Positions 8,671 through 53,631 of a stretch of DNA of 64,000 bases are shown piece after piece. Numbering within the stretch: the first letter of the stretch is position 1; every line of letters starts with the position of its first letter. The position numbers and the translations under genes were made by a program. The stretch comes from Candidatus Marinacidobacterales bacterium (GTDB lineage Bacteria > Acidobacteriota > Vicinamibacteria > Marinacidobacterales > DATDRI01). Under the pieces are notes generated by a model. The model was not told where the DNA came from. It was given only the letters and a program-made list of their open reading frames with translations, and did no database searches. Where the stretch lies: positions 1,920,001 to 1,984,000 of the forward strand of contig CBDCNP010000002.1 in assembly GCA_965219415.1 (NCBI GenBank), given 5' to 3'.

Positions 8671-9859
8671 ATGACTTATCGATGGATGTTGCTCCCTAAC
8701 ATACTGCCGCTTTGTTTCTTACTCGCCTGCCAGATTGGCGAAAACGCTGAGCCTGCCGATTTCGACGAGTTGCTCGCTAGCTTCCATCGGCTCTCGTCGC
8801 AAGAACGCCAGGAGCGGGTCGCCGACTACATCACGACCAACGGACCCACTCCGGTGATCGAAGGCAACGAAGCGATTTTCGTTGCCCAGGGCGACCCCTC
8901 GACACCTCCACGGATCCTCGGCGACTTCAACGCTTGGTGAAGAAACGACGACGGGCCTGTCGCCTCGGCAGGTAACATGACGCCGATCGAGGGAACCGAC
9001 TGGTATTACCTAAGGATGGAATTCCGTCCGGACGCGCGCATCGAGTATTCGGTCGTCCGGGGTGAGGCCGAAGAGCTGGATCCACACAACCCCTCGACGA
9101 CCGCGGGCGGCGAGCACCAGCTATCGGAGTTGGCGATGCCAGTCTACGACCCCCACCGGAGTTTTCCGAGGATACTTCGGTCCCCAAGGGCCCAGTGAAG
9201 GAGAGTATTTTCAAAAGCCGGATCTTGAGCAACGAGCGCAAGATCCTCATCTACTTGCCGAGCGGTTATGAAAAAAGTGATCGCCGCTACCCAAGCATCT
9301 ATATTGGGGATGGAGCCATCTATGCGGAACGCGGTTTTCCCGAGCTCATCGACTACGCCATCGCAGAGGGTCTCTGCCGACCACTCATTGCGGTTTTCGT
9401 AGATCCCGTCGTCCGCCGCGAAGAGTACCGGATGCACGAGGGCTATCGCCGGTTCATGACTGAAGAGCTGGTGCCCTTCATCGACGAAAGTTACCGGACC
9501 TTGACCGAGCCGAGCGAAAGGGCAACGTTGGGGGCCTTCGCGCGGAGGACTGGCGGCCGCGGACTTGGCCTATTCTCATCCGGAGATGTTCGGCTTTGCC
9601 GCGGCTTTGAACTCCCGCGACCAGGCCCACGAATTTCAACGAAGTCATTGCTTCGAATCCCGCCCGGCCGGTCCGGTTCTTCCTGATGGTCGGTCTCTAC
9701 GACACCCGCTGGGCCAACGACGGCTTCGAGCTTCGCGACGCTTTGGTCGAGGGAGGCTACGATTTCGCTTACGTGGAGGTCCCCGAGGGACACAACCTCA
9801 AGGCGCGGGGAGCCCAGTTGGACGAGATTTTCGCCGATTTTTTTCCGCCTGAACGTTGA
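8671..9859 (+). pseudogene. Fes/enterochelin-esterase-like alpha/beta hydrolase lipoprotein, several frameshifts
   Basis: Lipobox LLAC; GDFNAW, RKILIYLPSGY, EELVPFIDESYRT and VPEGHN fall in successive frames. Confidence 0.75.
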
Positions 9860-9959
9860 GCGTTCCCTTTTGAGGAAGCGAAAGACTGAGGGATCGCCGT
9901 GATATACTCGGCTCTTTCGAACCTGACGCTCATGTGGTCGGAGAAAGGAGGCGACCCGA

Positions 9960-11072
9960 ATGCATAAGAAAAGCAAGTATCTCCATGGACCCGAGATCAG
10001 CTCGCGCTCCATCGATCCGAATTGGTCCGTGGCGCAGCTCATCGACGATAGCTTCAACGCTTATAACGCCGGACGCCTCCGCGAATCTTGCCAGCTCTTC
10101 GTCGATCGCGTCCTCGACGACGATGTCACGGTAGGGCTCTCAGTCTCCGGAGCGCTCACGCCGGCCGGTCTCGGGCCAAGCGCGCTCATTCCGCTCATGG
10201 AGGCGGGCTTCGTAGATTGGATCATTTCTACCGGTGCCAATCTCTACCACGACACGCACTATGGCATCGGCTACGACATGCACCGTGGGACCCCCTTTGT
10301 CGACGACGTCAAGGTCTTCGAGGACCGAGTGGTTCGGATCTACGACATCTTCTTCAAGTTCGAAGACCTTCTATCTCTGGACAAGTATTATCAACGCCTG
10401 GTCTGCGCCGATGAATTTCAGAAGGAGATGTCGACCGCCGAGTTCCACTACCTTTGCGGCAAGTACGTGGGCGAACGGGAAAAGGCGCTGGGATTGGAGA
10501 ACCGCTCTTTTCTAGCCGCCGCGCATCGCTTGGGAGTCCCCATTTACACATCGTCACCCGGGGACAGTGCCATCGGTATGAACGTCGCCTCCATGGCGCT
10601 CAACGACAACAAGCTCAAGCTCGACATCTGTGCCGACGTCAACGAAACAACGGCCATCGTGTTCGACGCCAAGTTCAACGGCCGCAAGGCGGCCGCGGTC
10701 ATGCTCGGAGGCGGATCTCCGAAGAACTTCCTACTCCAAACCGAGCCCCAGATTCAGGAGATCCTCGGCTTCGACGAAAGGGGCTTCGACTACTTCATGC
10801 AGTTCACCGACGCGCGTCCGGACACCGGAGGCCTTTCCGGCGCCACCCCCGGTGAGGCCGTCAGCTGGGGAAAGGTCGACCCCGAGATGCTGCCGCATGC
10901 CATCGTCTCGTACGTCGATTCAACGATCGCTCTCCCGCTTCTTACTTCCTACGCTCTGGAGCGTCACAAACCTAGAAAGCTGAAGCGCCTCTACGATCAC
11001 CGCGCCGAGTTCGTCGACGCTCTAACCAAGGAATACCATAAGCGGGTCCCCGAGGTTCAGCCGCTCAAGTAA
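9960..11072 (+). CDS. Deoxyhypusine synthase-like protein (probable homospermidine synthase)
   Basis: [43 protein letters not shown]. Confidence 0.9.
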
Positions 11073-32182: not shown

Positions 32183-33271
32183 CTGCCTTGGTGCACAACT
32201 CCGATAGAGGCCGAGAGCTCGCTTGGCCCCGACTCCCATCATCCGATCATCTCGCTATCAGGCATCCCGAGCGCCGTCATGGTGTTGAGAATCTTGCACC
32301 CGATCCTTGCCTCACCTCTCTGTGCCGCCAACCCTCTCGCTCGCATCGCTGAGCCCACGATAGCCTTGTAGCGATGGAACGTTGTCTCGACTTTGCTCCG
32401 TTTGCTGTAGCCCGATTCTGTGTGCCACTTTCGTTTGCCGAGCCGAGCTTGTGCTGCAATGTTGCGATTGCGCTGTCGGCTGCTCGCCGGCCCCGATGCG
32501 AGCAGGGCGCCCTTGCGCGGCGGTATCAGCACCCTCGGCGAGCGATGAGCGCTGTGATTCTCGATTGCCTCATAGACGCCGCTGGCGTCGTATGCGGTGT
32601 CAGCTCTGGCCGATGAGATGGGACTGTCGATCTGTCCGACAAGCGATGCAACCCGCGATGAATCGCGGGCTCTTTTGCTCGTCAGCTCGCCGGCGACGAC
32701 TTCGCCACTCTGCTCGTCGACACACAGATGGAGCTTGCGATAGTCCCTGCTCTTTTGTGCTCTGCGCAGCTGGCCGGCGTGGACAGCGAGACCGCTGCTG
32801 TCGAACAAGATGTGCAACGGCGTCTTCTGCTTGACTGGGTAGAAGGGGACCTTACCCAGCTTCGGCTTGCGCCTCGAGATCGTGGTGTGATCGGGCACAT
32901 CATTGTCTAGCTTCATCAGAGCGAACAACGACCGCAGCAATCCCTCGCTCTGCCTAGATGACAGATGAAACACCATGCCCAGGGTGACAGCCGTCTCGAT
33001 GGCGTGGTTCGAGTACTTGCGTTGACGGCCCGGTTTCCTCCTCCTTGGCCGGGGCGCGTCCCAGTTCACAAGCTTGCCGGCGGTGAGCGAGATCCAGACG
33101 GTCAGGCTCCCGCGGTTGCGTAGACCCGCCTCATATTCACGCCAATTCCTCACGCGATAGGCCTTCTTCACATACTTCCGCTGAGTGCGTTTGAAAATGC
33201 TCATGGGGAACCTCGTATCCGCGAGTACAGGACAATTGTGGACCGAGATCGCGAGTTGTGCACCAAGGCAG
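32183..33271 (-). mobile_element. IS5-family (IS903-like) insertion sequence
   Basis: Perfect 19-bp IRs CTGCCTTGGTGCACAACTC (32183-32201) and GAGTTGTGCACCAAGGCAG (33253-33271); no flanking direct repeat. Confidence 0.9.
32239..33204 (-). CDS. IS5-family transposase
   Basis: NWREYEAGLRNRGSLTVW, PDHTTISRR, DSSGL, ADTAYD, GYSKRSKVETTF. Confidence 0.92.
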   Translation of the reverse strand: MSIFKRTQRKYVKKAYRVRNWREYEAGLRNRGSLTVWISLTAGKLVNWDAPRPRRRKPGRQRKYSNHAIETAVTLGMVFHLSSRQSEGLLRSLFALMKLDNDVPDHTTISRRKPKLGKVPFYPVKQKTPLHILFDSSGLAVHAGQLRRAQKSRDYRKLHLCVDEQSGEVVAGELTSKRARDSSRVASLVGQIDSPISSARADTAYDASGVYEAIENHSAHRSPRVLIPPRKGALLASGPASSRQRNRNIAAQARLGKRKWHTESGYSKRSKVETTFHRYKAIVGSAMRARGLAAQRGEARIGCKILNTMTALGMPDSEMIG

Positions 33272-34117
33272 CATGGACCCAAGAAGTATAATGTGATGGC
33301 TTTGAAAATAGTACGTCAAGTGTGCGCGATGACATCCTTTATTGGGCGCGATGGCGTTCGTCGGCACATGCAGGTCAACTAACATAGCATTCAAAGGCCT
33401 CCAACGCCCCGCAGCACCGGTGTCGAGTTTGATTTCGAGCTCGCGCCGACCCGCAATTTCGACTTTGCCATTTCACGAGCTTCAACAACTCCCAGATGCA
33501 ATCCACCGTGCAGCCAACCTCGGCAACGAGAATCCTGGAGGGGCGGCGGCTACCGACCGTGCCCCAGTTCCAGTTCGCCGCCATCGGCCACCTACCAGTG
33601 GCAGACGGGGAGTCGGTACCCTACGTGACCGCTAGTTGCCAGCACGTCGGCGAGCCCGTCCGCGAGGACATCGACTGGCGCAGGCCCCCCCCGCGATGGC
33701 TTGCCGCGCATCGACCTCGGGGACCTCCCGGTCGCCATCCACGACCGCTCCATGTGGAGCGTGCGACGCTTGGTGCACACCCGCATCCTCACGAGCCTTC
33801 GCACCTGCTCCAGCCGAAGCGTGCGCTACAACGGCCACCGCGTCGCGACCAAGAGGTACAGTGAGGCCACAAGGTGCGCCGCCGACCACGGAACGACGTT
33901 CACTTCGAGTGGTTCGTTCGGCATCATGTCTGCCGACCGCCCACGCCGCTCGCGGAACTCGCCGCCGGGGCGGGTGCCACGAATCATCACGTCAGCAGAA
34001 TCGTCTGGCCGGCACGCTCGATCTCTCTGTTCGGTCATACGCTCTCACATAGTCGGTTCAAGATCCGAGTCCGTGGCAGCATGCACCAATAATATGAATA
34101 TTGAGGTGCTTCCGCCA

Positions 34118-37401: not shown

Positions 37402-37974
37402 ATGGATGTCGTTCGCTCTCGCTCGGGATGGATCGAAGTCATCACCGGGAGCATGTTCAGCGGCAAGAGCGAGGAGCTGATTCGCCGCGTGCGACGTGCC
37501 CAGATCGCTCGCCAACGTGTCCAAGTGTTCAAACCGAGCATCGACGGTCGTTACAGTCTGGAGCATATCGTCTCCCACAACGAGCAACGACTCGAGGCGG
37601 AGCTGGTCCCCACCGCGGATGAAATAGAGAATCGTCTCGACGATCGGACCGAAGTCGTGGGCATCGACGAGGCACAATTCTTCGATCCGGACCTAGTCAA
37701 GGTGTGCAACAAATTGGCTTGCATGGGCAAGCGCGTCATCGTTGCCGGCCTCGACCAAGACTACTTGGGCAAGCCTTTCGAACCGCTCCCACAATTGCTC
37801 GCCATTGCGGAGTACATCACCAAGACCCTAGCGATCTGTATGCGTTGTGGGGACCCTGCGAATCACACGCAGCGACTCGGGACCTCCCACGAAAGAGTCG
37901 TGGTCGGAGGTTCCGAAGCCTACGAAGCGCGCTGCAGACGCTGCTTCGAGCCCGGGCCGGCGACCGACAACTGA
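37402..37974 (+). CDS. tdk: Thymidine kinase
   Basis: [24 protein letters not shown], zinc Cys pairs, YEARCRRC. Confidence 0.96.
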
Positions 37975-38886
37975 GCCTTTCTTAGTCCTTCCACCCATAG
38001 GTTGGCTCCGAGCACCGCGAGGGTGAGCGCCCCACCCGGCACGGCAAGCGTCCACCAGTATCGGGTCAACGAAGCGTAGTTAGAGGCCGCGAAGGCCAGC
38101 ATGTTTCCCCAACTAGCATGGGGCTCCTGCACTCCGAGGCCTAGGAACGAAAGCGTCGCTTCACCTAACAGGAAATACGGGAGCGTGAGACCCACCTGCA
38201 GCAACAAGAGGGGAAGCGTATTCGGAAGGATGTGTCGGAAGAAGAGTCGACCCTGGCCGGCCCCGGCGGCGACCGCGGACGTGGCAAAGTCGCGTTCTCG
38301 CAGCGACAAGACGTGCCCTCGCACGAGCCGTGAAACACCGCACCAACCGACGAGCGCCAACGACCCAACTAGAATCAAGGCCGTCCAACCCTGGGCTAGG
38401 TCATCGGGGAAAACGTTCCGGATCGCGAGAATCAGATAAAGGGCTGGGAGGGCCATGAAGAGCTCCGTCGTTCGCATCAACCATCGATCCCATATCCCAC
38501 CGCCGATTGCCGCGGCCGCTCCCACGAGGGCGCCGAAGCTCACGGTGAGCAAAACACCAAGTAAAGCGGCCGTTGCACTCACCCGCGCTCCATGGAGCAC
38601 CCTCAAGAGTAGGTCTCTTCCCAGAGCGTCGGTACCCAGGAGATAGACTCGACAACCCTGGAACCCGAACAAATGGGTGGCCCCGTCTTTAGTCCGCCAC
38701 CAGCCAGCTAACTGAACAGCCGGCGCTCGGAAGCGAAGGCGGATGATGGAAGCTCTCCCGATCCTGGGCTCGCGGGCTGTAGGGCGCCAAGAAGGAGGCC
38801 CCGACTCCCGCGACGGTGATGACCGAAAGCAGGGCGATCCCTAAGCGTGCCCCCCGATCGGCCCACCACTTGGGTTTCCTCAACAT
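37920..38886 (-). pseudogene. Peptide ABC transporter permease (OppC/DppC-like), frameshift near 38685
   Basis: LGTDALGRD, RHILPN, EATLSFLGLG, SWGNML; N-terminus (FLAPYSP) in another frame. Confidence 0.8.
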
Positions 38887-39227: not shown

Positions 39228-40199
39228 CTAGGCCTCCTCCATGCGAATACGTGGATCGGCGGCGCCCGTCAATAAGTCCGCGATCAGATTGCCGAAGAGG
39301 ATCAAGACCGATCCGAGTACCAATATCCCAAGCAGCAAGAACGAATCTCGGGCGAGCAGTCCGTCGAACGCGAGCCTCCCCATGCCCGGCCATCCGACAA
39401 ACACCTCGATTAGAAACGCACCGTTCAACATCCGCGCTAGAGAAGCGCCCGCGAAAGCGATGAGTGGGACCAATGCCGGCCGGAGACCGTAGCGGACGAG
39501 TATCTGGCCTTCGGTAAGGCCACGGGAGCGCGCCGCCCTCACGAATTCCGAGGGTAGAATTTCGAGTAGAGCCCCCCTGGCCTGCAAGAAGAATAGAGGG
39601 GACATCGAGAAGGTAAGGAGAAAGGCCGGCAACAGTAGATGCCGAGCATGATCCAACATCCGACTCAACCACGGAAGCTCGAGCGATCCGGCCATAGAAC
39701 CACCACTGATGGGAAGCAGACCGGTGGCCGCGGCAATTCCCAAGCCACCCACCGCAAGCACCAAAGTGGGAACCGAGACGGCTCCGAGTGCAAGACCGGC
39801 AAGGATTCGATCCAGCGATCGTCCCGGACCAAGCATCGCGAGAAGGCCGAATGCCAAACCGACGAGGGACGAGACGACCAGCGCCACCAGCACGAGGGCC
39901 AGCGTATAGAGTGCCGCCTCGCCAAGGAGCTCCGCTACCGGACGTCGAAAGGCGAGAGAAACCCCCAGGTCGCCGCGGACCGCTCCCGCCAACCACGACA
40001 GGTATTGTTCATACCAGGGCTTGTCGAGACCGAAGCGGCTCACAAGGTCGTCGACCGTCCAGGGCGGAATCCCCGGATCCAGTCGCAAACGATCGACGAA
40101 CGAGCCGGGCGCCAGGTGGAGAAGCAGAAAGGAGAAGAAGCTCACCCCGAACAGCAAGGGAATGGCGGCCAGAAGTCTCGTGAGCGCCATACGAAACAC
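39228..40199 (-). CDS. Peptide ABC transporter permease (OppB/DppB-like)
   Basis: FGLDKPWYEQY..GDLGVS, EFVRAARSRGL, FVGWPGMG, DPRIR. Confidence 0.92.
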   Translation of the reverse strand: MFRMALTRLLAAIPLLFGVSFFSFLLLHLAPGSFVDRLRLDPGIPPWTVDDLVSRFGLDKPWYEQYLSWLAGAVRGDLGVSLAFRRPVAELLGEAALYTLALVLVALVVSSLVGLAFGLLAMLGPGRSLDRILAGLALGAVSVPTLVLAVGGLGIAAATGLLPISGGSMAGSLELPWLSRMLDHARHLLLPAFLLTFSMSPLFFLQARGALLEILPSEFVRAARSRGLTEGQILVRYGLRPALVPLIAFAGASLARMLNGAFLIEVFVGWPGMGRLAFDGLLARDSFLLLGILVLGSVLILFGNLIADLLTGAADPRIRMEEA

Positions 40200-40280: not shown

Positions 40281-42791
40281 TTATCCCACCCGGCGATCGG
40301 TCTTGTCCTCGGCTCCAAAGAGGCTGGGCTGTTGTGCGACGCGATCAGACTCCTCCGGCCTTCGGCGACGCATCTTTCGACGACTCTTCTGATCGTACAT
40401 GTTTCTATCGGCCGCCATGAGGAGGGACTCGAGATCGGCACCGTCAGCGGGAAAAGACGCGAGCCCGAGTGATATTCCCACGCTCAGCATCTTTCCGATC
40501 CCGACGTCGATGTCGGATGACTCCACGACTTCCTGCAGTCGATGGGAAAACTGAACGGCCTGTTCCATCGTCGTCTTCGGCAATACCGCAATGAACTCGT
40601 CCCCAGCATAGCGGACCAATACGTCACTGTCTCGCATCTGCGCCTTCAGGATGCGTCCGACCTCTTTTAGGAACCGATCTCCGGCATGATGACCAAAACG
40701 GTCGTTCACGCTCTTGAAGTCATCCAGATCCATCTCGATGACGGTGAGCGGCTCGTCGTAGCGTTTTGCCTCCGAAAGGGTCTGCTCGAAGAAAATGTAG
40801 AGGAATCGAGAATTGGCGAGGCTCGTCAAACGATCGGTGAAGGCGTCCTCTTGGGTCTCCTCGAACCGAATCGCGTTGTAGAGCGCTATCGACGAGCGGT
40901 TGGCGATGATCTCCATCAACCGCACATGGTCGTGCGAATACCGCTCGTTTCCCGACCAATAGAGCCCGATTGTTCCGAGCGGTCGTTCCTCGTGAATCAA
41001 CGGAGCCAAAATGGAGTTATGGTAATTCTTTCGGAATTGCTCGGGAAGAAGCATCAGATCCGGACCCGGGTGTACGTTGTAGAGCATGCGGTTGTTGGCG
41101 GCCACCCAACCGGCCAATCGCGTCCCGAACTCGATGGACACCTCTTTGAAGGCGTCTGGGTCTTGCCCCGTGATGTGAGCGGGTGTTAGAACCCCCTGGC
41201 TATCGTCCACGAGATAGATGACGAGCGTGCTGAACGGAATGATCTTCTCGATCTTGGATGCGATGATGGTGAGCGTGTCGGGACGGGACAACGAATTGCC
41301 AACGGTCTGCAAGATTTCGAATAGAGTAAATACCTCGCGCTGGGGCTCGGATATTGAGTCGCTGAAGGCGGGAGCCTGTGGAACTCCCACGATGTCCGGC
41401 ATCCGCTTCTTGTCCCGATGCTCCTTCGGCGCCGCCAGCTCCCGAACCGCCAATGTTCGTAACTGCGCGTCGAGCCCATCCACGATCTCTAGGAATTTGT
41501 TGAACACAATGGGGTCGAAACGATGTGCTTCCCGTTGCATGATCGAGATCGCTGTTTCCCGATCCAGGGAGCGCCGGTAGACGCGGCGGGCGGTCAGCGC
41601 TTCGTAGCAATCGGCGACCGCCATAATCCGGGAACCAAAAGGAATCTCGTCACCTTTGAGGCCGTCGGGGTAACCGCTCCCGTCCCAATTTTCATGGTGA
41701 TGTTTCACGAATGGAATCACCGGAACTGGGAAATCGATGGTGGAGAGGATCTGAGCACCCACCGCGGGGTGCGTACTCATCTTCTGGAACTCTCTTTCCG
41801 TCAAACGCGTGGGTTTGTGAAGGATGTACGAGGGGATCGAGATCTTGCCAACATCGTGTAACACCGCGGCGAACCAGAGTCCCTCATAAGTTTTATCGTC
41901 GACACCCAACGCGCGCGCCAATTGCAGGGTTATCAAACGGGTGCGTTGAATATGCGTGCTCGTGTGGTGCTTGTAATCGGTATGGAGCTCTAGCGCACCG
42001 ATCGATAGCGCGAACGCTTCCGCGGTTTGAGTGTAGAGCTGCGTAAGGTCTTCGTACTTCTCGTTGTAGAAGTGATGGGCGTAGTAAACCACCACCAAAA
42101 TGGGAAGACCGAGCAGGAACGCCCAAGGCCCAGCCACTCTCTGGAAGAAGTAAATGACTGCCGCGCCGGAGGCGGAAGCGAGAAAGTAGAGAGGAACAAG
42201 GGAAACGTTCTCTCTCCAAAGCCTCCAGAAGTCACTCCGGCCAGTCACTGCCATCATGGCGTGCATGGAGGCGGAGTTGATTAGGAAATACGTCCCGGAC
42301 AGCAAAAGGACGGGCACGATGACTTGATAGGCCGCCACAGGCCCCGATGGCAAGAACGCGTAATACACAATGCCGTAGACGAACGCGTAGATTCCGCCCG
42401 ACGCGGTGTTGAGGATGGCCTGGCCGTTCTTCCACGCTAGGTTCTCGGCGCGGTTCTCCAAGTGCTTCGTCTTGGTAGTAAACCAGTAGCCCGCCAAGGT
42501 GAAGAGGGCATTGGCCACGACTCCCGGCGCAATCCCGTAGATCATCGTCACCGAGAGGATCAGACAATCGGCCACCGCCATCCAGGTTTGGGTGCGAGGG
42601 ACACGAACGACCCACTTAGAGCTTAGAGAAGCGACCGCGATCAGACCGGCCAGCGACAGCCATTCCTGCCAGGTGAAGACCGCACGCAGCTGAACGAGGG
42701 CGTGGAAGGCCCAAGCGAAGATCGGGAGGGCAACGGCGACGACCGCCGCGATGTAGAGCTCGACTTTGGCTGGCCGATCTTGCCAGTCCAT
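40281..42791 (-). CDS. Multi-TM sensor with HD-GYP, GAF and GGDEF domains
   Basis: About 7 hydrophobic segments, LHDVGK, HHENWDGSGYPDGL, GAF (APLIHEERPLGTI), DLDDFKSVNDRFGH..GD and RYAGDEF. Confidence 0.92.
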   Translation of the reverse strand: MDWQDRPAKVELYIAAVVAVALPIFAWAFHALVQLRAVFTWQEWLSLAGLIAVASLSSKWVVRVPRTQTWMAVADCLILSVTMIYGIAPGVVANALFTLAGYWFTTKTKHLENRAENLAWKNGQAILNTASGGIYAFVYGIVYYAFLPSGPVAAYQVIVPVLLLSGTYFLINSASMHAMMAVTGRSDFWRLWRENVSLVPLYFLASASGAAVIYFFQRVAGPWAFLLGLPILVVVYYAHHFYNEKYEDLTQLYTQTAEAFALSIGALELHTDYKHHTSTHIQRTRLITLQLARALGVDDKTYEGLWFAAVLHDVGKISIPSYILHKPTRLTEREFQKMSTHPAVGAQILSTIDFPVPVIPFVKHHHENWDGSGYPDGLKGDEIPFGSRIMAVADCYEALTARRVYRRSLDRETAISIMQREAHRFDPIVFNKFLEIVDGLDAQLRTLAVRELAAPKEHRDKKRMPDIVGVPQAPAFSDSISEPQREVFTLFEILQTVGNSLSRPDTLTIIASKIEKIIPFSTLVIYLVDDSQGVLTPAHITGQDPDAFKEVSIEFGTRLAGWVAANNRMLYNVHPGPDLMLLPEQFRKNYHNSILAPLIHEERPLGTIGLYWSGNERYSHDHVRLMEIIANRSSIALYNAIRFEETQEDAFTDRLTSLANSRFLYIFFEQTLSEAKRYDEPLTVIEMDLDDFKSVNDRFGHHAGDRFLKEVGRILKAQMRDSDVLVRYAGDEFIAVLPKTTMEQAVQFSHRLQEVVESSDIDVGIGKMLSVGISLGLASFPADGADLESLLMAADRNMYDQKSRRKMRRRRPEESDRVAQQPSLFGAEDKTDRRVG

Positions 42792-42979
42792 CGTGACTCC
42801 CGGTTAGCAGAAAGAAAAGTCGAGTTAAAAGAGACTTCTATTTAAGAGTCCGGTCCAATTGACTTCTTCTTTGATTCCGTTTACCGGGGTTCGTATTAAT
42901 GAATTAGCAAGACGGCAAAATGAAGAGATGTGATAGTAGCACAGCGGCGCCAGGCCGGTCAAGATACTAAGGCAGGGAG

Positions 42980-43013
42980 TACGAGGAGGCCACCGAGGTG
43001 ACCTCCTCTCGTA
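42980..43013 (-). terminator. Stem-loop downstream of the micro-ORF
   Basis: GAGGAGG(C)CACC-GA-GGTG(A)CCTCCTC inverted repeat; no clear U tract. Confidence 0.45.
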
Positions 43014-43051
43014 AAGTCAATTAAATCAGGACGATCGACGGAGATCGTCGT

Positions 43052-43078
43052 TTAGACCCAAAGGATTCCGCGATTCAT
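43052..43078 (-). CDS. Putative micro-peptide MNRGILWV
   Basis: ATG AAT CGC GGA ATC CTT TGG GTC TAA; removing the IS1595 element places AAGGAG 7 nt before this ATG. Confidence 0.4.
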   Translation of the reverse strand: MNRGILWV

Positions 43079-43103
43079 TTGGGAATTATATACTAGTTTA
43101 CAC

Positions 43104-43132
43104 TTGACCCCTGCCCCAGCCTTGTGTATACT
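43104..43132 (+). promoter_or_regulatory. Sigma70-type promoter of the transposase
   Basis: TTGACC-17 bp-TATACT, then GGGAG RBS before ATG 43158. Confidence 0.75.
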
Positions 43133-43157
43133 ACTTCCGTAAATAGGGAGTAGATAA

Positions 43158-43610
43158 ATGGCACACAAAGCACCCGGCAAGCACTACCGCGAAGGGCTCT
43201 CGCTCGTCGAACTAACGCGCCTCTTCCCCGATGACGCAACTGCGGAGCGGTGGTTCGTCGCCCAGAGATGGCCGGATGGCGTTTCCTGCCCTCTTTGCGG
43301 TGGGACCGAGCGCGTCAAGGAGCGCAAGAACAGGAAGCCGTCCCCCTACCACTGCGGAGACTGCCGACAGTACTTCAGCGTCAAGACGGGTTCGCTGATG
43401 CACAACTCCCCACTGGGCTGCCAGACCTGGGCCATCGCCATTTACCTTTTGACGACAAACCTCAAGGGCGTTTCGAGCATGAAGCTGCATCGAGATCTCA
43501 AAGTCACACAGAAGACCGCGTGGTTTCTGGCTCACCGGATTCGTGACAACTTCCAAGGGCAACACAGTTCCTTTCAATCTCCAGTCGCGCGTCGAATTTC
43601 TGTTCTTTAG
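43158..43610 (+). pseudogene. IS1595 transposase, N-terminal zinc ribbon and HTH only
   Basis: RWPDGVSCPLCG, YHCGDCRQYFSVKTG, KGVSSMKLHRDL..TQKTAWFLAHRIR; no DDE domain. Confidence 0.9.
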
Positions 43611-44174
43611 GCTCCTCTCCGTCCTCTGTGACGACTACGAAGTAGTCGACCTTTCGGAATTCCAGCACCTCAGCTGAAACACTCGATGCTGCTAGACTGA
43701 GTAAACACATCAACCTGATCATCTGACAAACTCCTTTGCTGGCGCATACACCGGATTCCGGAATTGGTCGCCGGGCCAGTCTGCCCGATCAAGCTGCATG
43801 TGTCGTATGCAGGTTCTCGCTTATTTCCTCCCCGGGGGAGGTCTTGTATTCGGCAAGCGACCCGACGTTGCTGCTACCAGGACGCAAAACAACTGAGGAT
43901 TGTTCACGAGAAAGGCGGGGCCGCAAAGGCAACCTACGCGGAAATCCCGTTCGGGGACGTAACGAGCGTTCTGTACGAGCGGTCCAAGTCGCCGCGTGTC
44001 AAGACAGCCATCTTCCTGTCGCCTCTGGCACTATTTGCGCCAGGAAAGAAACACTGGCTCACCATAGAGTACAAAGGCGGCTACTCGTATATGCGCCTGG
44101 ACAAGAAGAATCAGCGCCAAGTGCGCGCTGCGTTGGGTGCGGCTGGATTTGAAGTCGAAGCGATGGTTGGGTAG
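43574..44174. pseudogene. Secreted ~148-aa passenger protein split by an internal inversion
   Basis: N-half on - strand (43722-43574, signal peptide) and C-half on + strand (43877-44174) join in frame when 43574-43876 is flipped. Confidence 0.7.
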
Positions 44175-44288
44175 AACGCAAGGGGCTTAGGTGAAGAGGT
44201 GAACATACCCCTTAGTTCGTTCAGTGGGGTTCGTGTCGATCCCAATCCAGCGTTGCTTCCGCCGGGCCATGTGTTCTCGATCGAAGCG

Positions 44289-44483
44289 TTAGGAAATTAG
44301 GTCTTTGGCCTTGGCGCGGTCCCACCGAGCACGGATCGCCTTTCTCGCAATTTCGCGTCGTCGTTCAGGCGTCAGCTTTGCGGCTCGGGCTTTGCCGAAC
44401 ATGACGGCGCCTGGATTCTTGCCTTCCGCCTCGGCCTTGGCGATCAGCTCCAGGAGCTCGGTTGATTGGCCTGACACAAGCAT
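44289..44483 (-). CDS. Small basic passenger protein
   Basis: KNPGAV..GKARAAKLTPERRREIARKAIRARW basic helix motif. Confidence 0.65.
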   Translation of the reverse strand: MLVSGQSTELLELIAKAEAEGKNPGAVMFGKARAAKLTPERRREIARKAIRARWDRAKAKDLIS

Positions 44484-44535
44484 AGTGTATCACTAGTGAG
44501 ATGGAGGCATGGTATGGCAAAGGAGAGATTGCCCC

Positions 44536-44700
44536 ATGAAGGAGAAGGAAACCAAGCCGAAGCGTGGGCGCCCGAGCACTGGGAAATACGACGCGATTAT
44601 CCACATCGATGCTACGCCAGCACAAGTAGCGCGGTCGCTATTCGTGGGTAGGCCGAAGTCCTTAGCAGAGTGGAAACGAGAGAAGAAGATCGTGCCGTGA
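44536..44700 (+). CDS. Small accessory ORF of the IS1595 element
   Basis: AAGGAG upstream; KRGRP AT-hook-like motif, IDATPAQVARSLF; ends next to the right IR. Confidence 0.55.
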   Translation: MKEKETKPKRGRPSTGKYDAIIHIDATPAQVARSLFVGRPKSLAEWKREKKIVP

Positions 44701-44776
44701 GGGGGTTTGTGTAAACTAGTATATAATTCCCATTCATTTCAGAGCTCCTTGTGCTCATTCCAGATCCAGCTCGGGA

Positions 44777-44868
44777 TCACCCGTTAAAAATCAACGCGGG
44801 AGCGGTTCGCTCTTCGAGCTCTTCCACGGTCAGTTCAACGATTTCGATTTGCCATTTTGGGTTTCCAT
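44777..44868 (-). CDS. Putative ~30-aa precursor peptide, M(ETQ/ENP)KWQIEIVELTVEELEERTAPALIFNG; needs one extra base near the 5' end
   Basis: GAAAGGGA RBS before ATG 44868; 92 nt to TGA; adding one A in an A run joins the ATG to the WQIEIVELTVEELEERTAPALIFNG frame. Confidence 0.55.
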
Positions 44869-45020
44869 TTGTTAGTCCCTTTCTTTCAATTAGTTGTGCC
44901 GAATTAACTGAAAACAAAGACGTAAGCAATTTAAATACTAGACCCACAAAACACCGTTGTTCATCGTGCTACCTCCCTGAGATGCCCGACCCGAAGGGAC
45001 ACGCCGACCGGGCCGGGGTT

Positions 45021-45059
45021 AGGAACGGAAGCTCCCTCCACCGAGGGGTCTCCGTTCCT
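45021..45059. other. Strong intergenic stem-loop
   Basis: AGGAACGGA..CCCTC-CACC-GAGGG..TCCGTTCCT. Confidence 0.55.
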
Positions 45060-45401
45060 GGACTGAAAAGGTTAAGTTGCTGAGAGGAGTGGTTCGGGTA
45101 ACGCAGCGGAAGGGGACTCGTTGGAACTGTCATGATTTCAAATAAAGGTCTTTGAATGACTAGCTCAAGAACCCTTGGTGCAGCCCCTTTCAGACCGACC
45201 GAAATTACCTACAACCTCTGCCTCTCGACCCACCTCCTTCTCGATTGACCGACAGAAACTGAAGACTTCGAAACTTTGGTCTTTCTAAGACTTCTGATTT
45301 ACGTGCGAAAAATAGACCCCATCAGCAAAACAGTCAGTGACCAGGATCACCAATGGGAAAACATGGGGTTTTCCCCTCGTTCTTTCGGCTTATACCCCAA
45401 A

Positions 45402-47128
45402 TCACCTTGTCAAGTAAAGCTCGTCACTGTTCCAAAGGGTCGGGTGCCAAAAGGGTGTGGGCTCGAGGTTTCCGAGCCGGGAGGTGGTCCCCACCAAGGC
45501 GTGGGGAACGACCAGATCGATGACGGGAAGCTCTTCGACCACCAAGGCCTGCAGCTCATCGATCAATGCCTTGCGGGCTCCATACTCGACGGTCATCATC
45601 TGTTGGCCCATCAGCTCGTCCAACCTCGCTTCCCATTCGCTGGCGGGCTCAGGTTGAGACGGGTGCCATAGGTGGAGAGGAGAGCTGCTGACCCAAAGGG
45701 GCCTCTCCGACGAGGGGTCGGGATCGGTAAAGCTAATCCCCAAAAGGCAAGCTTGGTAGTCGAAACTTCGGGTCACGCGACCAATTAGGGTCGCGAAATC
45801 GAGTGGAACGAGGTTCATTTCGACCCCAATCCGGGCAAGGTCTTCCTGGACGAGGGTGGCGGTCTTCAAACGGAAGGGATTGTCCGCATTGGTGAGGAGA
45901 GTGAACCGCACGCGATTCCCCCGCGGGCCCGAGAAGCACCTCCCCGCCCTGTTTGAAGCCGGCCTTCGCGAGCAGGTCACGAGCCCGTTGCGGATCGTAG
46001 GGCGGTGGAGCAATAGACTCGTTCCACCACCGTCGGTTTGCCGGGGTGATGGGACCGGCTGCCGGAGAAGCCAGATCCCCGTAGACGGCCTTAGCGATGG
46101 GCCGCCGGTCGATGGCCAGGGAAATGGCTCTGCGGAAACGTCGGTCCATGAACCATGCTCTCTGCTCCGCCGATACCGAACTTTCCGGGTTGAGATTGAA
46201 CCAAATTCGCTCGGGAGTCGTTCCCGGGCCCAGATCGATGAGGCGCCGATCCGAAGTTTCTTTCCCACTGAGGCTGATGAAGTGCTCCGGTGGCAGCGGG
46301 CTCAAGAGGTCGAGCTCCCCGGCGCGAAAGCGCAGTGCCAAGGCGTTTGCGTCGGATAAGATTTCAAAGGTGATTCCATCCAAATAGGGGAGCGGCTCGC
46401 CCTCGGGCCCGTACTTCCAGTAGTTCGTGTTGGAGCGGAGTACCACCCTCTGGCCGGGCACATAGCGATCGAGAACAAATGGGCCTAGGCCTATGATCGT
46501 CGCCTCGTTGGCCCCGATCCCGTATTCCGACGGCAACGTTCCTTGCTCGAGAGATGCCTCCAGTCGATGTCGCGGAAGGACGGTGATGCTGTCGAAGATC
46601 CTTTCGACGACCGCAGTTCGAAGCGGTAGCTTGAAACGCACGGTCAGCGGATCGACGACCTCCGGAACGAGCGGCTGGCCCTCGACAACCGCTAACTCGA
46701 CAAAAGGGCTCGCGACCTGCGGGTCGTGAATGACCCGGAACGTGAATGCTACATCCTCCGCCGTGAAGGGCTCACCGTCCGAGAAAAGGACCCCGGGCCG
46801 CAATTTGAAGGTCAGCTCTCGACCATCCTCAGAAAAGGACCACGACTCGGCCAGCTCAGGCTCGAGCTCCTGCGTCACCCGATTGACTTCTGAGCAACGC
46901 GGCATGAAGGCGCTCAGTAATCTGGTGGCTCACCTCATCGGTAGCGAGAAGCCGATTCCACGTCTGGGGCTCGCTACGAATTCCCACTCGCAGCATGCCA
47001 CCGGCGACCGGTGTGCCACTGATCGATGAATCCCCTTGGACCGCCACTTCGTCCGACCAACGGCAGTGAAGGGTGGTGAAAAGCGCAAGCGTAGCGAACG
47101 CGAGGGGCAGGGTAGATGCGCGCGACAT
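45402..47128 (-). pseudogene. Peptide ABC transporter substrate-binding lipoprotein (family 5), two frameshifts
   Basis: Lipobox LHC, PELAESWSFSEDG, FSDGEPFTAEDVAFT, GLGPF, FRRAISLAIDR, EELPVI; frame changes near 46890 and 45935. Confidence 0.82.
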
Positions 47129-47328
47129 CCACGTCATTAGGCCCAGCCTTTCTCTCAATAACTGTCTATCTGGAAGTTACATTCTCCATCAAAGAATGCC
47201 GAATAGCCAGAGGTTTCGGTGCCCACAGTCGCAGCGGCTAGACCTTGCGAGGGCCACCGAAGGTGAGCTAAAGTTAACTGGCTCCAAGACTTGGACTTGC
47301 GTACGAAAACCCTCTCGGACCAAAGGCA

Positions 47329-48153
47329 GTGGACATCCTGATAAACACGCTAAACATCAGCCTTCCCACGCTTTACGCCTTGGCATGGGCCGACTACGCC
47401 CTGTTGTTCTTTCGCAACGACGCCTTCGCGGAGAAGACGGCCCCTTGGCTTCTCAGACTGGCCGCGGTTCTGCACGGCATCTACCTCGTCTTGCTAGAGG
47501 CTCACCAACCGCACTTTCCGGTGGCAACCGTCTTCGAGGCCTTTTCACTTCTGGCGTTTTCGGTTTTGGTGGTCTACCTCTTCATCGAATCTCGTATCGG
47601 CATTCGCACGACCGGTTTTTTCATCGTGGGCTTGGTCTTCGCGTTTCAGCTCGTGTCCTCGGCCTTTATCACCCGTCCGACCGAAATCAATCCGCTCCTC
47701 GCGGAGCCCTCCTTCGTCCTACACGCTGCGACTGCCGTGCTGGGTTACTCGGGGATGACGATTTCGGCCATCTATGGCCTGCTTTACTTGATGCTCTTTT
47801 ATGACATCAAGAAGAACCGCTTCGGGCTCATCTACAAACAACTCCCCTCTTTGGAAGTGATGGCTAACTTCACCTACCGGGCGGCCACGCTGGGCTTCAT
47901 CTTTCTCACCGTAGCGATGGCGCTCGGGTTCGCCTTGGTGGTCAAAATCGACCAGCCGGGATGGACGTGGGATCCGAAGTTGATCATTACCTTTGTGGCT
48001 TGGCTCATCTACGGGGCGTGCACCGCAGGCCGCAGATTCTGGGGTTGGTCGCCGCGTAGAGTGGCCTTCGCGTCGTTGACCGGCTTCGCCGTCATTTTGT
48101 TCTCGTTGGTGGTCGTGAATTTTCTCTTCACCTCCTTTCACGGATTCGTCTGA
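47329..48153 (+). CDS. ccsA: Cytochrome c assembly protein (CcsA/HemX-like)
   Basis: About 8 TM segments, LHAA, LPSLE, WDPK, C-terminal SFHGF; precedes hemA. Confidence 0.85.
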   Translation: MDILINTLNISLPTLYALAWADYALLFFRNDAFAEKTAPWLLRLAAVLHGIYLVLLEAHQPHFPVATVFEAFSLLAFSVLVVYLFIESRIGIRTTGFFIVGLVFAFQLVSSAFITRPTEINPLLAEPSFVLHAATAVLGYSGMTISAIYGLLYLMLFYDIKKNRFGLIYKQLPSLEVMANFTYRAATLGFIFLTVAMALGFALVVKIDQPGWTWDPKLIITFVAWLIYGACTAGRRFWGWSPRRVAFASLTGFAVILFSLVVVNFLFTSFHGFV

Positions 48154-48154
48154 T

Positions 48155-49504
48155 ATGAACCTTCTCGTCGTTGGAATGAACCATCGCACGGCTCCGATTG
48201 ACGTGCGGGAGAAGGTCGCCTTCAGCGACAGTGAAATTCGGGACATCCTCTCCCGAACCCGCGCCGAGGAGACGCTCGGCGAAGTCCTGGTTCTTTCAAC
48301 ATGCAATCGAACCGAGTTCTACGGGCTTTCCACGGACAACGGGGCGGCGGAGATGTACATCCGGAACCTCATCGCCCAGCAGAAGAAAGTGGATTTGGCG
48401 GCCCATCCCGGCTACGCCTACACGCTTTCGGATGTCGAGTCGGCAAGGCACCTGATGCGCGTCGCCACCGGGTTGGACTCCATGCTTCTCGGAGAGCCTC
48501 AAATCCTCGGCCAGGTGAAGCAGGCCCACCAGCTATCTGTGGAGTCTGACGCCTGTGGGCTGGTCCTGAATCATCTCCTGCAGGCTGCGATCGTTGCGGG
48601 GAAGAGGGTCCGCACCGAGACACGTCTCGGGGGAGGAGCAATTTCGGTAGCCAGCGCAGCCTCCGAGCTGGCCGGCAAGATTTTTCAGGATCTTTCGACC
48701 CGCTCGGTTCTGCTCATCGGAGCCGGGGAAATGGGTGAGCTCACCGCTCGCCACATGTTGGAAAGAGGAGTCTCGGATCTTACTATCGCAAACCGCACGT
48801 TCAGCAAAGCGCATGAGCTCTCGCGCGAGCTCGATGGAAAGGCGCTTCCCCTCGACCGTGTCGAGGAGGCGCTCGTCTCCACCGACATCGTCATCAGCTC
48901 TACCGGAGCCACCGAGCCCATCGTTAGCGAAGCTCAGATGAGGACCATCGTATCCAAGCGGGCGGGGAGGCCGATCTACATCATCGATATCGCCGTGCCG
49001 CGGGACTTCGAGCCACGAATAGAACGGCTGGACGGGGTCTTCCTCCACAATCTGGAAGCCTTGAATCTTTTGGTGGAAAAAAGTCTCGAGGACCGTCGGG
49101 GCGAGATTCCGCAAGCAGAAATGATCGTAGAGGAAGAATTGGAAGGGTTTCTCAATTGGCGAAACTCCCTTGCCGCCACCCCCACCATCAAACAACTTCG
49201 AGAGAAACTCAAGGAAATCCGTCGACAGGAGGTGGCTCGCTACCGCGGCCGATTCTGCGACGAGGACCAGGAGCAGTTGGACCGGCTGACGGAAGGTTTG
49301 ATGAAAAAAATCTTTCATCCCGCGATGGGCAGGATTCGAGACTGGAGCAGCAAGGGAAAGCTTGGAGCCCTCCGTATCGACACGATCTACGAGCTATTCG
49401 AATTGCCCCGCCCGCCAGGCCGGCCCAACCAGCGCGGACAGCCCGGACAGGAAGACCTCGCCCAACCTGAGCAAGACGCCAGCGACGAGGAGCCTGAGGA
49501 GTGA
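48155..49504 (+). CDS. hemA: Glutamyl-tRNA reductase
   Basis: NHRTAPIDVRE, STCNRTE, GLDSMLLGEPQILGQ, GAGEM, DIAVPRD. Confidence 0.97.
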   Translation: MNLLVVGMNHRTAPIDVREKVAFSDSEIRDILSRTRAEETLGEVLVLSTCNRTEFYGLSTDNGAAEMYIRNLIAQQKKVDLAAHPGYAYTLSDVESARHLMRVATGLDSMLLGEPQILGQVKQAHQLSVESDACGLVLNHLLQAAIVAGKRVRTETRLGGGAISVASAASELAGKIFQDLSTRSVLLIGAGEMGELTARHMLERGVSDLTIANRTFSKAHELSRELDGKALPLDRVEEALVSTDIVISSTGATEPIVSEAQMRTIVSKRAGRPIYIIDIAVPRDFEPRIERLDGVFLHNLEALNLLVEKSLEDRRGEIPQAEMIVEEELEGFLNWRNSLAATPTIKQLREKLKEIRRQEVARYRGRFCDEDQEQLDRLTEGLMKKIFHPAMGRIRDWSSKGKLGALRIDTIYELFELPRPPGRPNQRGQPGQEDLAQPEQDASDEEPEE

Positions 49505-50477
49505 GAGCTCTGCGGGTCGGGACCCGTGGCAGCGAGCTAGCGCTAGCGCAAACCCGTGGGATTGTGACGACGCTGAAGCAGCGGCTGCCTGACATTGAAG
49601 TCGAGATCCAGATCATCAAGACAATCGGCGACATTGTCATCGACCGCCCTTTGTCTCGAGTTGGAGATCGCGGGCTCTTCATCAAAGAGATCGAGAACGC
49701 CCTCCTGGATGGTTCGGTAGATTTCGCCGTCCACAGCATGAAGGACCTTCCGAGCACACTGCCCCATGGGCTCGCCGTGGCCGCGGTGACCGCCAGGCTC
49801 GACCCGCGAGACGTACTCATCTCGCGCCAGGCGCGCTCGATCGAAGCCTTGCCTCGGAACGGCATACTCGCCACCGGCAGCCTGCGCCGGCGTTCGCAAG
49901 TGCTCGCTATCCGTCCGGATCTCCGAATTGCCGAATTACGAGGGAACATCACGACAAGGCTTCGCAAGTTCGATGAGTCGAGTTGGGATTCGATGATCCT
50001 TGCGAGCGCAGGTCTTGTGAGACTCGGCCTCGAGGAGCGCATGGCAACCACGATTTCCACCCCCATTCCCATTGCCCAGATGCTACCCGCCGTGGGCCAG
50101 GGGGCGCTCGGGCTCGAAGCCCGGACCGACGATTCCGAGATTAGCGAGTTTCTCGTGAGCCTCAACGACCGGGAATCCGCGACCGCGGTGGCGGCCGAGC
50201 GCGCTCTTCTCCGCCGGCTAGAAGGAGGCTGTCAGGTGCCGATCGGGGCACACGGCCTCCTCGAGAGGGGGTTGGTCTTGGAAGCGTACATCGGGAGCAC
50301 CGACGGGCGGCAGCACTTGAGGCGTCGGGCCGAGGGAGCGCCCGAACGAGCCGAAGAGATCGGGGAATCTTTAGCGGAGCAGATGCTAAGCGAAGGGGGA
50401 GACGAGATTCTCGAGAAAACCCGGGCTGAAGCGACTGACGTGCCTGACGTTAACGAAGCAAAGGAAAAGCAATCGCC

Positions 50478-50481
<4 letters not shown>
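49501..50481 (+). CDS. hemC: Porphobilinogen deaminase
   Basis: GTRGSELALAQ, AVHSMKDLP, TGSLRRRSQ, LEGGCQVPIG. Confidence 0.97.

Positions 50482-53630
<3,149 letters not shown>

Positions 53631-53631
<1 letters not shown>

Follow-up and report, generated by a model that had tools for sequence, protein, structure and literature searches.

The stretch of DNA analysed here, hereafter the window, comprises 64,000 nucleotides (nt) of contig CBDCNP010000002.1 (positions 1,920,001 to 1,984,000) from Candidatus Marinacidobacterales bacterium, of the Acidobacteria. Its minus strand carries a cassette consisting of (i) a gene for an OppA/DppA-like substrate-binding protein (SBP), (ii) a gene for a peptide of 30 amino acids (aa), (iii) open reading frames (ORFs) of only 7-9 codons, here called micro-ORFs, and (iv) a gene for a membrane enzyme of cyclic di-GMP (c-di-GMP) turnover, here called the receptor. 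Judged by their conservation, the 30-aa peptides are real genes and form an undescribed family. Gene family and conserved cassette are real and new; the mechanism is what we infer from them. The cassette looks like a peptide-signalling module, partly broken in the window's strain, and the best single reading, put forward tentatively, is that the tail of the 30-aa peptide is an input to the c-di-GMP enzyme.

The peptide family and its link to the receptor

A search with a 56-aa open frame from the window returned proteins of ~30 aa. All 24 public proteins examined combine a variable N-terminus, the invariant stretch EIVELTVEELEERTAP and a hydrophobic tail, such that the motif ...EELEERTAP is followed in each by a variable tail. 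The tails are 5-8 residues long and include ALIFNG, GLIFNG, GIIYGG, GLIYAG, GVLWCG, GIIVVF and GLVVVW. In an alignment of 21 sequences, an unbroken run of 16 columns is invariant, and the tail varies; a profile run against 1.84 billion representative proteins returned 37 matches at E<=1e-3. At the DNA level, the leader shows 8, 3 and 15 variable columns (of 16 each) at first, second and third codon positions, respectively. Because variation falls mainly at third positions, selection must act on the peptide.

Pfam and NCBIfam hold no model that matches the 30-aa peptides, and the motifs ELEERTAP, NHNETL, HNETLV, EELEEVIAP and VEELEER had no occurrence in the literature searched. Papers on Acidobacteria, c-di-GMP, small peptides and HD-GYP domains, judged by title and abstract, yielded nothing relevant. 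The nearest clusters in the ESM Atlas are hypothetical proteins of ~31-35 aa; the only named one, a lantibiotic, stands at chance level.

The profile search also found repeat proteins (..VELSVEELEEVIAP, 4-8 variable residues, NHNETLVSD..), whose general form is EELEEVIAP, 4-8 variable residues, NHNETLV(S/R)D. Scanning of metagenomes turned up 58 multi-core loci of this kind (L044-L101), some with at least 10 repeats; L048:3736-4704, L049:9806-10384 and L051:2-1879 are examples. Their neighbours form three groups: (i) an extracytoplasmic function sigma factor with a Ser/Thr kinase-TPR protein, (ii) a TPR protein with a HlyD-like protein of ~900 aa, and CHAT-TPR proteins, and (iii) for a variant with cores after ...RAGG, an ATP-binding cassette (ABC) transporter with a C39 peptidase domain. 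A multi-core design implies that short peptides would be cut out, which supports EELEExxAP as a candidate cleavage and recognition module.

The distribution of the peptide was surveyed in 55 genomes of one Acidobacteria order, which fall into families f1, f2 and f3. The order-wide counts include one unpublished genome, G007, on which no other claim rests. Of the 55 genomes, 19 were found to carry the peptide and 21 the receptor membrane domain. In all 19 peptide-bearing genomes the receptor adjoins the peptide, and no peptide was found in the 34 genomes without the receptor; adjacency and joint presence and absence thus tie the peptide to this receptor. Family f3 has neither (0 of 28 genomes for both), and a sample of 400 further genomes from the phylum yielded no peptide. 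The cassette is lineage-specific, being known from two families of one order. Two genomes have the receptor only: in G003, a deletion has fused a truncated SBP gene to a frameshifted peptide remnant, and in G006 the contig begins inside the receptor gene. G016 and G018 retain the receptor as deletion-scarred remnants only, and G022 retains only the SBP.

For synteny, 14 peptide loci were taken with 10 kb on either side. In 13 of them the order is SBP, micro-ORF, peptide gene(s) and receptor orthologue (59-89% identity), the SBP lying directly upstream of the peptide in every case (13/13); in 10 of the 13, genes for the permeases OppB and OppC follow the receptor. The fourteenth is an orphan peptide gene in G004 (tail GIVIVIY; L027, G004:C7, about 9800-10040), which lies beside a MacB/FtsX permease gene and a DUF885 gene. 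In the cassette of the same genome (L026, G004:C23), two full peptide genes stand in tandem with a third, shorter match; that of G005 (L029, G005:C21) has two peptide copies with identical tails.

A first-pass annotation of the window, made from its letters, had proposed hidden peptide genes with the anatomy of an acidic leader and a short core upstream of the c-di-GMP enzyme. That anatomy recurs in the relatives, as the 16 invariant leader columns and variable 5-8-aa tails described above, and the relatives do carry conserved peptide ORFs upstream of the same receptor.

Layout and decay of the cassette in the window's strain

The features of the cassette, in the direction of transcription, are as follows (SD, Shine-Dalgarno site; IS, insertion sequence).

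45417-47017, minus strand: OppA/DppA-like family-5 SBP gene (Pfam SBP_bac_5, E 3.7e-69), in three frames when searched by tblastn with an intact orthologue
near 46888 and 45928, minus strand: frame breaks of the SBP gene (tblastn)
44938-44964, minus strand: micro-ORF 1, MNNGVLWV plus stop, with the SD site GGAGG at 44972-44976, 7 nt upstream
44777-44868, minus strand: leader-core peptide gene (30 aa), METQNG[N]IEIVELTVEELEERTAPALIFNG; one nt is deleted between 44849 and 44848, which disables it
44745-44750, minus strand: AAGGAG, the original SD site of micro-ORF 2, now 1.65 kb from it
43081-44731, no strand assigned: IS1595-like IS of 1651 bp (inverted ends, Zn_ribbon_IS1595 match, target duplication)
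43073-43080 and 44732-44739: the 8-bp target duplication of the IS, ATTCATTT (sequence repeat)
43052-43078, minus strand: micro-ORF 2, MNRGILWV plus stop (pattern search and locus alignment)
43030-43049, minus strand: hairpin GACGATC/GATCGTC, behind micro-ORF 2
42983-43008, minus strand: terminator-like hairpin GAGGAGGTCACC/GGTGGCCTCCTC, followed by a C/T-rich tract
42933-42962, minus strand: receptor promoter-like site, TTGACC, 18 nt, (TG)TACTAT (promoter scan)
40281-42791, minus strand: receptor gene, 836 aa, MASE9-like/HD-GYP/GAF/GGDEF (Pfam, fold model)
39228-40199, minus strand: OppB-like ABC permease gene, intact (Pfam BPD_transp_1)
37923-38871, minus strand: OppC-like ABC permease gene in two frames, with a break near 38691 (alignment to orthologues)

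The minus-strand features read in the first pass (ORF, IS, SD, stem-loop and receptor gene) are thus all present, the stem-loop at 42983-43008 and the 836-aa transmembrane (TM)/HD-GYP/GAF/GGDEF gene at 40281-42791; micro-ORF 1 (MNNGVLWV) and the Opp-like genes bordering the locus had been overlooked. The solved structures closest to the SBP are oligopeptide binders (E about 1e-25). Housekeeping genes flank the cassette: tdk, efp and a GHMP kinase gene on one side, and a ccsA-like gene, hemA, hemC, hemD, hemB and hemL on the other. The heme-biosynthesis genes (47329-53631) align at or near full length to their orthologues in relatives. An Rfam scan of 42000-46000 at E<=1 matched no family.

A GC-rich hairpin separates the last small ORF from the receptor gene in 13 of 14 loci, with stem sequences that differ from locus to locus. 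Behind it lie a C/T-rich tract, then a promoter-like site (TTGAYY...TGTGnTA, conserved in an alignment of 16 loci) and then the ~170-nt leader of the receptor gene. Since this site is downstream of the hairpin, the small genes look like a unit of their own with a separate short transcript, which argues against simple attenuation of the receptor gene.

In the window, the ATG at 44868 encodes METQNG, after which a one-base slip, within an Asn codon, leads into ...IEIVELTVEELEERTAPALIFNG and the stop at 44777-44779. The intact peptide, METQNGNIEIVELTVEELEERTAPALIFNG, is known from public proteins and from a sister strain. The window was compared over 42700-47200 with contigs from four public runs (X1, X3, X4 and X7). 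The frameshift is matched by X1, X3 and X4 (three runs from two studies), while X7, from a related strain that differs at 9 of 1037 letters, carries an additional base behind 44848 (plus-strand G, giving AAC on the minus strand), which restores an ORF identical to public protein P0004. Given this agreement across two studies, the frameshift can be called reproducible and not peculiar to the window's assembly, and the idea of a mere assembly error finds no support here. The peptide gene is truly broken in the window's strain and intact in the sister strain. This bears out the slip behind the ATG that the first-pass annotation had read, in the translation as well as in the run contigs, and places the missing base: X7 has it, and X1, X3 and X4 do not. 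At the first SBP break (46888), run X1 lacks a base that is present in the window; that break is therefore polymorphic or an error.

The IS has ends of 33-nt imperfect inverted repeats, flanked by the 8-bp target duplication, and a Zn-ribbon N-terminus (Zn_ribbon_IS1595, 29.5 bits, Pfam), and is thus IS1595-like. It occurs as a single copy in the genome and is seen in all four runs; no contig bridges its two flanks, i.e., none has an empty-site joint. Two ORFs (150 and 138 aa) share the split transposase, and an intact DDE domain was not found, the second ORF (43736-44152) having no Pfam match. The IS also has an opposite-strand ORF of 64 aa (44289-44483). In X1 and X4, contigs link both IS ends and skip the interior, which suggests miniature inverted-repeat (MITE-like) or circle-junction forms somewhere in those samples. 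A further transposase gene (DDE_Tnp_1/DDE_Tnp_1_5) lies at 32239-33282, ~5 kb past the cassette. Removal of the IS in silico yields MSTRSSEMNRGILWV plus stop, with AAGGAG 7 nt before the inner ATG, just as the first-pass annotation had reconstructed MNRGILWV; the insertion splits micro-ORF 2 from its SD site.

In the window's strain, then, the putative peptide input no longer works, since frameshifts affect the peptide gene, SBP and OppC; the receptor is intact. SBP, OppC and peptide are all broken beside an intact receptor in two genomes, G000 and G003. Such joint decay with the receptor spared holds for these two but not as a rule: interrupted frames are seen for the receptor in G004, G005, G010 and G034, and for the SBP in G014.

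The micro-ORFs and their second locus

A micro-ORF of the form M(x)xG[IV][LV]W[VIA] plus stop, with (A)GGAGG 5-9 nt upstream, precedes the peptide gene in all 15 aligned loci, the G034 copy having lost its stop codon. In family f1, a second copy lies downstream of the peptide gene (G001, G003, G004, G005). Among 20 copies, second codon positions are invariant save in one copy, third positions vary in four of five codons, and residue changes are limited to I/V, L/V and V/I/A. A pattern that includes the SD site finds the micro-ORF in 22 of the 55 genomes (28 distinct ORFs). A reversed control pattern had no matches in these 55 genomes and none in a 401-genome sample of the class, of which 346 genomes lie outside the order; in the same sample, the micro-ORF pattern itself gave only two matches outside f1 and f2, both non-ORF, and shuffles of the window gave none. 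Conservation in relatives and these search controls exclude chance for the small ORFs. On the evidence of their codons, the MNRGILWV-type micro-ORFs are real conserved genes, and the hidden peptides of the first-pass annotation are genuine, being conserved and under codon-level selection.

The micro-ORF also occurs at a second, unrelated locus, as MxTNGILWV plus stop in L102-L107 (genomes G018, G016, G012, G020, G036 and G454; near 8010-8070, and 4260-4290 in L105). An M28 peptidase gene lies upstream of it there, and its promoter (TTGAC...TATTTT) is preceded by a TGTGG-N9-CCACA palindrome. The micro-ORF is followed by two hairpins and a conserved TATAAT, then by a fused LeuD/LeuC-like gene of the aconitase family and a gene like that of electron transfer flavoprotein (ETF)-ubiquinone oxidoreductase. 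In three of the six genomes (G012, G016 and G018) neither receptor domain nor peptide was found. The micro-ORF is thus a portable element that does not need the receptor. Its position ahead of an aconitase-family operon in receptor-free genomes favours a cis-acting leader role, and its presence at an unrelated locus argues against a dedicated ligand of the c-di-GMP sensor. Judged from this arrangement, the micro-ORFs of 7-9 codons most likely do not encode ligands but act in cis, as leader ORFs by which the next gene's expression is set. They have the layout of an attenuator, a short SD-bearing ORF upstream of hairpins and a gene; each contains single codons for Ile, Leu, Trp and Val, and no regulatory codon runs. 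RNAalifold on the six locus-2 sequences gave two hairpins and no alternative pairing, with compensatory change in 2 of 26 pairs.

Two other readings of the micro-ORFs have to be weighed. According to the first, the tail and the micro-ORF product (e.g., RGILWV) would both bind the membrane sensor directly, the micro-ORF encoding a core without a leader. The product, G-[IV]-[LV]-W-[VI], does resemble many tails, which share a glycine, two hydrophobic residues and a tryptophan (GIVWGG, GLVWT, GVLWCG, GMIWN). Hairpins follow the ORF directly, and behind micro-ORF 2 and the locus-2 copies they are followed by the promoter-like site of the next gene, as for stand-alone small genes; the sensor, moreover, has a predicted membrane fold of a ligand-binding type (see below). 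Resemblance to the tails and adjoining hairpins keep a ligand reading of the micro-ORF open. Against it stand the six genomes in which MxTNGILWV precedes the aconitase-family/ETF-ubiquinone oxidoreductase operon, three of them without receptor or peptide. In addition, we know of no bacterial signal of 7-9 unprocessed residues, and the cassette has no exporter. We regard this reading as unlikely.

According to the second, all of the small ORFs, the 30-aa peptides included, would be cis-regulatory leader or arrest peptides that sense Ile, Leu, Val, Trp or another factor, with no diffusible peptide involved; the translating ribosomes would govern read-through to the receptor and Opp genes. It fits the short ORFs with strong SD sites just upstream of hairpins and two unrelated gene sets, and the tails abound in Ile, Val and Leu, much as the leaders of branched-chain attenuators do; R-x-A-P-G is also loosely like the RAPP/RAGP arrest motifs. 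However, a conserved promoter-like site stands between hairpin and receptor gene, and RNAalifold shows no antiterminator pairing. Moreover, 16 residues of the acidic leader are invariant and the part rich in Ile, Val and Leu is free to vary, unlike in normal attenuators, and the tandem peptide genes of G004 and G005, the orphan at G004:C7 and the multi-core relatives all fit precursors. Extended in this way to every small ORF, a leader role seems quite improbable.

The tail peptide as candidate input, and comparison with known systems

Under the preferred, tentative reading, the 30-aa product would be a precursor, in which the acidic leader EIVELTVEELEERTAP is the recognition and cleavage module and the variable, hydrophobic tail of 5-8 residues is the peptide released. 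The released peptide would serve as input signal for the c-di-GMP enzyme, being either (i) bound in an S-component-like pocket of the membrane domain, or (ii) passed on or taken in by the OppA-like protein and OppBC; the enzyme would then shift its balance of breakdown (HD-GYP) and synthesis (GGDEF). The Opp-like genes offer, as import system or co-sensor, another route than direct binding by the TM domain.

Residues 1-250 of the receptor form a MASE9-like membrane domain of 7-8 helices, followed by HD-GYP, GAF and GGDEF domains (Pfam HD_5, GAF_2 and GGDEF), which gives the domain order MASE9-HD-GYP-GAF-GGDEF. The Pfam MASE9 model (PF20972) scores below its cut-off on the receptor (16.7 vs 24.3 bits); a homologue 79% identical over the first 250 residues has a precomputed PF20972 match. 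The HD...HHExxDGxGYP motifs are invariant in 12 orthologues. The cyclase motif is RYAGDEF, an AGDEF variant, with an RxxD I-site five residues upstream. The membrane domain occurs only in proteins of ~835 aa with the same architecture (32 of 32 database matches), and those matches whose source is named are from metagenome-assembled genomes of Acidobacteria or Vicinamibacteria. Its most conserved stretch, residues 61-72 (SxxWVVRIPRT..W), forms in the model a beta-hairpin that lies between helices 2 and 3 and matches the MASE9 'intramembrane hairpin' described in the available part of a preprint (10.1101/2021.11.05.467447).

A model of receptor residues 1-260 (predicted local distance difference test 75, predicted template modelling score 0.77) was compared with 48,161 chains. 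The top 15 are S components of energy-coupling factor (ECF) transporters (Z 15.1 to 9.7, 152-191 residues aligned, spanning residues ~7-222 of the predicted model), and the next match falls to 7.6. S components are membrane-embedded binders of small ligands, which fits a sensor role of the membrane domain. Two points weigh on the other side: the domain is a helical bundle, for which a Z near 13 can arise from a common arrangement, and Foldseek, which ranks the same S-component family first, does so at an E of only 0.017 or weaker. With a helical bundle and a predicted structure, an ECF S-component-like ligand-binding fold is likely, not proven. The receptor matches no S-component sequence family, and Pfam gave no EcfT or EcfA matches in the neighbourhood.

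The sensor also appears to diverge with the tail. Between families, the membrane domain is 44-49% identical and the whole protein 63-67%. Pairs that are 94-98% identical outside the membrane domain were compared by the ratio of membrane-domain divergence to that of the rest. In four same-tail pairs from two genera the ratio is 1.3-1.85; in G000-G001, the sole close pair with different tails, it is 3.9. In metagenome receptors from the window's clade, identity is 90-95% outside the membrane domain and 74-90% within it, and the peptides of this clade have identical leaders and different tails. This looks like a pherotype-style co-diversification of sensor and tail, drawn from one close pair and from metagenome receptors not paired with peptides.

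As for processing, Ala-Pro precedes the core in place of the Gly at -2 and Gly, Ala or Ser at -1 of a double-glycine (C39/PCAT) leader. Leu -12, Glu -8 and Leu -7 of the peptide leader agree with the double-glycine consensus. A C39 transporter (PF03412) is encoded in 32 of 41 relatives, with or without the peptide, so that co-occurrence does not discriminate.

Several further observations count against the preferred reading. Pfam found no protease, modifying enzyme or exporter in the cassette, either in the window, where the first-pass annotation had likewise seen no processing enzyme or exporter, or in the 13 syntenic loci. There is no ABC ATPase gene adjacent to the cassette, and OppBC are absent from 4 of 16 cassettes (G020, G026, G034, G036). 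The whole neighbourhood is syntenic, with tdk/efp on one side and hemA-L on the other; adjacency may hence be inherited and is not necessarily functional. The receptor is intact without a working peptide in G000 and G003, which makes the peptide at most an optional input. Finally, frame breaks are scattered among the relatives, and some of them may be assembly errors.

Some of these points would suit an alternative in which the 30-aa peptide is the precursor of a secreted product, either bacteriocin-like, akin to a ribosomally synthesized and post-translationally modified peptide, or Opp-imported, that is unrelated to the c-di-GMP enzyme, the adjacency being a frozen accident. Synteny extends across two families, SBP, OppC and peptide are broken in G000 and G003 where the receptor persists, and the multi-core relatives have quite different neighbours. 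An unrelated product is harder to square with the absence of the peptide from every one of the 34 receptor-free genomes, with a sensor that diverges faster where tails differ, and with a cassette that has no immunity or modification gene. We therefore judge this alternative quite unlikely, and retain the tail as candidate input to the enzyme.

The first-pass annotation had taken ALIFNG and RGILWV as processed ligands of the TM sensor. Its ligand reading gains from the linkage of peptide and receptor (19/19; 0/34), from the predicted ligand-binding-type fold and from the ratio of 3.9 in the pair with different tails; it loses for RGILWV as a dedicated ligand, given the receptor-free locus 2. 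A fuller version would be a peptide pheromone system in a diderm phylum not known to have one, in which pherotype-like cores are sensed by the S-component-like domain, with or without the OppA-like protein, and directly set c-di-GMP through a bifunctional HD-GYP/GGDEF enzyme, the micro-ORFs being the core without its leader. In this complete form it is rather unlikely.

To our knowledge, most membrane sensor domains of c-di-GMP enzymes, MASE families included, have no known signal. Comparative genomics here gives a testable candidate for a sensor-signal pair: an encoded short peptide whose variable part apparently changes with the sensor. If this is true, it would mean peptide cell-cell signalling in Acidobacteria, an abundant and poorly studied phylum of soil and sediment, tied directly to the choice between sessile and motile life. 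Should the pheromone reading hold, it would supply a ligand class, the first, for MASE-type domains, along with some of the smallest functional genes in bacteria. Gene callers miss three kinds of conserved genes described here (the 7-9-codon ORFs, the 30-aa peptides and their multi-core relatives in soil metagenomes), and the search patterns now find such small genes without matches to reversed controls.

Among known systems, the pheromone plasmids pCF10 and pAD1 of E. faecalis (PrgQ/iCF10, PrgZ, PrgX) release a very hydrophobic C-terminal peptide of 7-8 residues from a ribosomally made precursor of ~22-30 aa and take it up via Opp permeases; next to the peptide gene they encode an OppA-family binding protein dedicated to it. 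An OppA-family SBP likewise stands beside the peptide gene here, in 13 of 13 syntenic loci. In contrast to those plasmids, the cassette belongs to a diderm, an Acidobacterium; its leader is acidic, unlike a signal peptide, and the neighbouring sensor is a membrane c-di-GMP enzyme; no RRNPP/PrgX-type receptor gene was found by Pfam among the ORFs of 28-58 kb. AgrD/AgrC and ComC/ComD share with the cassette a conserved leader with a hypervariable core, and a polytopic sensor that diverges with the peptide, here on thin evidence of co-divergence. They differ in that output here is HD-GYP/GGDEF and not a histidine kinase, and in that the cassette has no adjacent AgrB- or ComAB-type gene.

In NspS-MbaA of Vibrio cholerae, a periplasmic binding protein controls a membrane GGDEF-EAL enzyme. 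As there, an SBP gene lies directly upstream of the gene for a membrane c-di-GMP enzyme; MbaA has a periplasmic docking domain, whereas the receptor is predicted to have only short loops, and the SBP belongs to peptide-binding family 5. The micro-ORFs recall ErmCL, MsrDL, TnaC and ToiL, SD-bearing ORFs of 6-24 codons with conserved peptide sequence ahead of hairpins and a regulated gene. Unlike in those cases, a promoter-like site intervenes, and downstream are a peptide gene, a c-di-GMP enzyme gene or an aconitase-family operon.

The receptor itself has two relatives in kind. It has the same domain order as MASE9-HD-GYP-GAF-GGDEF proteins, for which an intramembrane hairpin formed by short segments has been described and a ligand proposed to bind within the membrane (Galperin and Chou, 10.1101/2021.11.05.467447). 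It differs in having associated peptide genes and a predicted S-component-like fold, neither of which the available part of that preprint mentions. With the S components RibU, FolT, ThiT, BioY and the metal-transport chain 4m5c, it shares its predicted membrane fold; unlike in these, the domain is fused to signalling domains.

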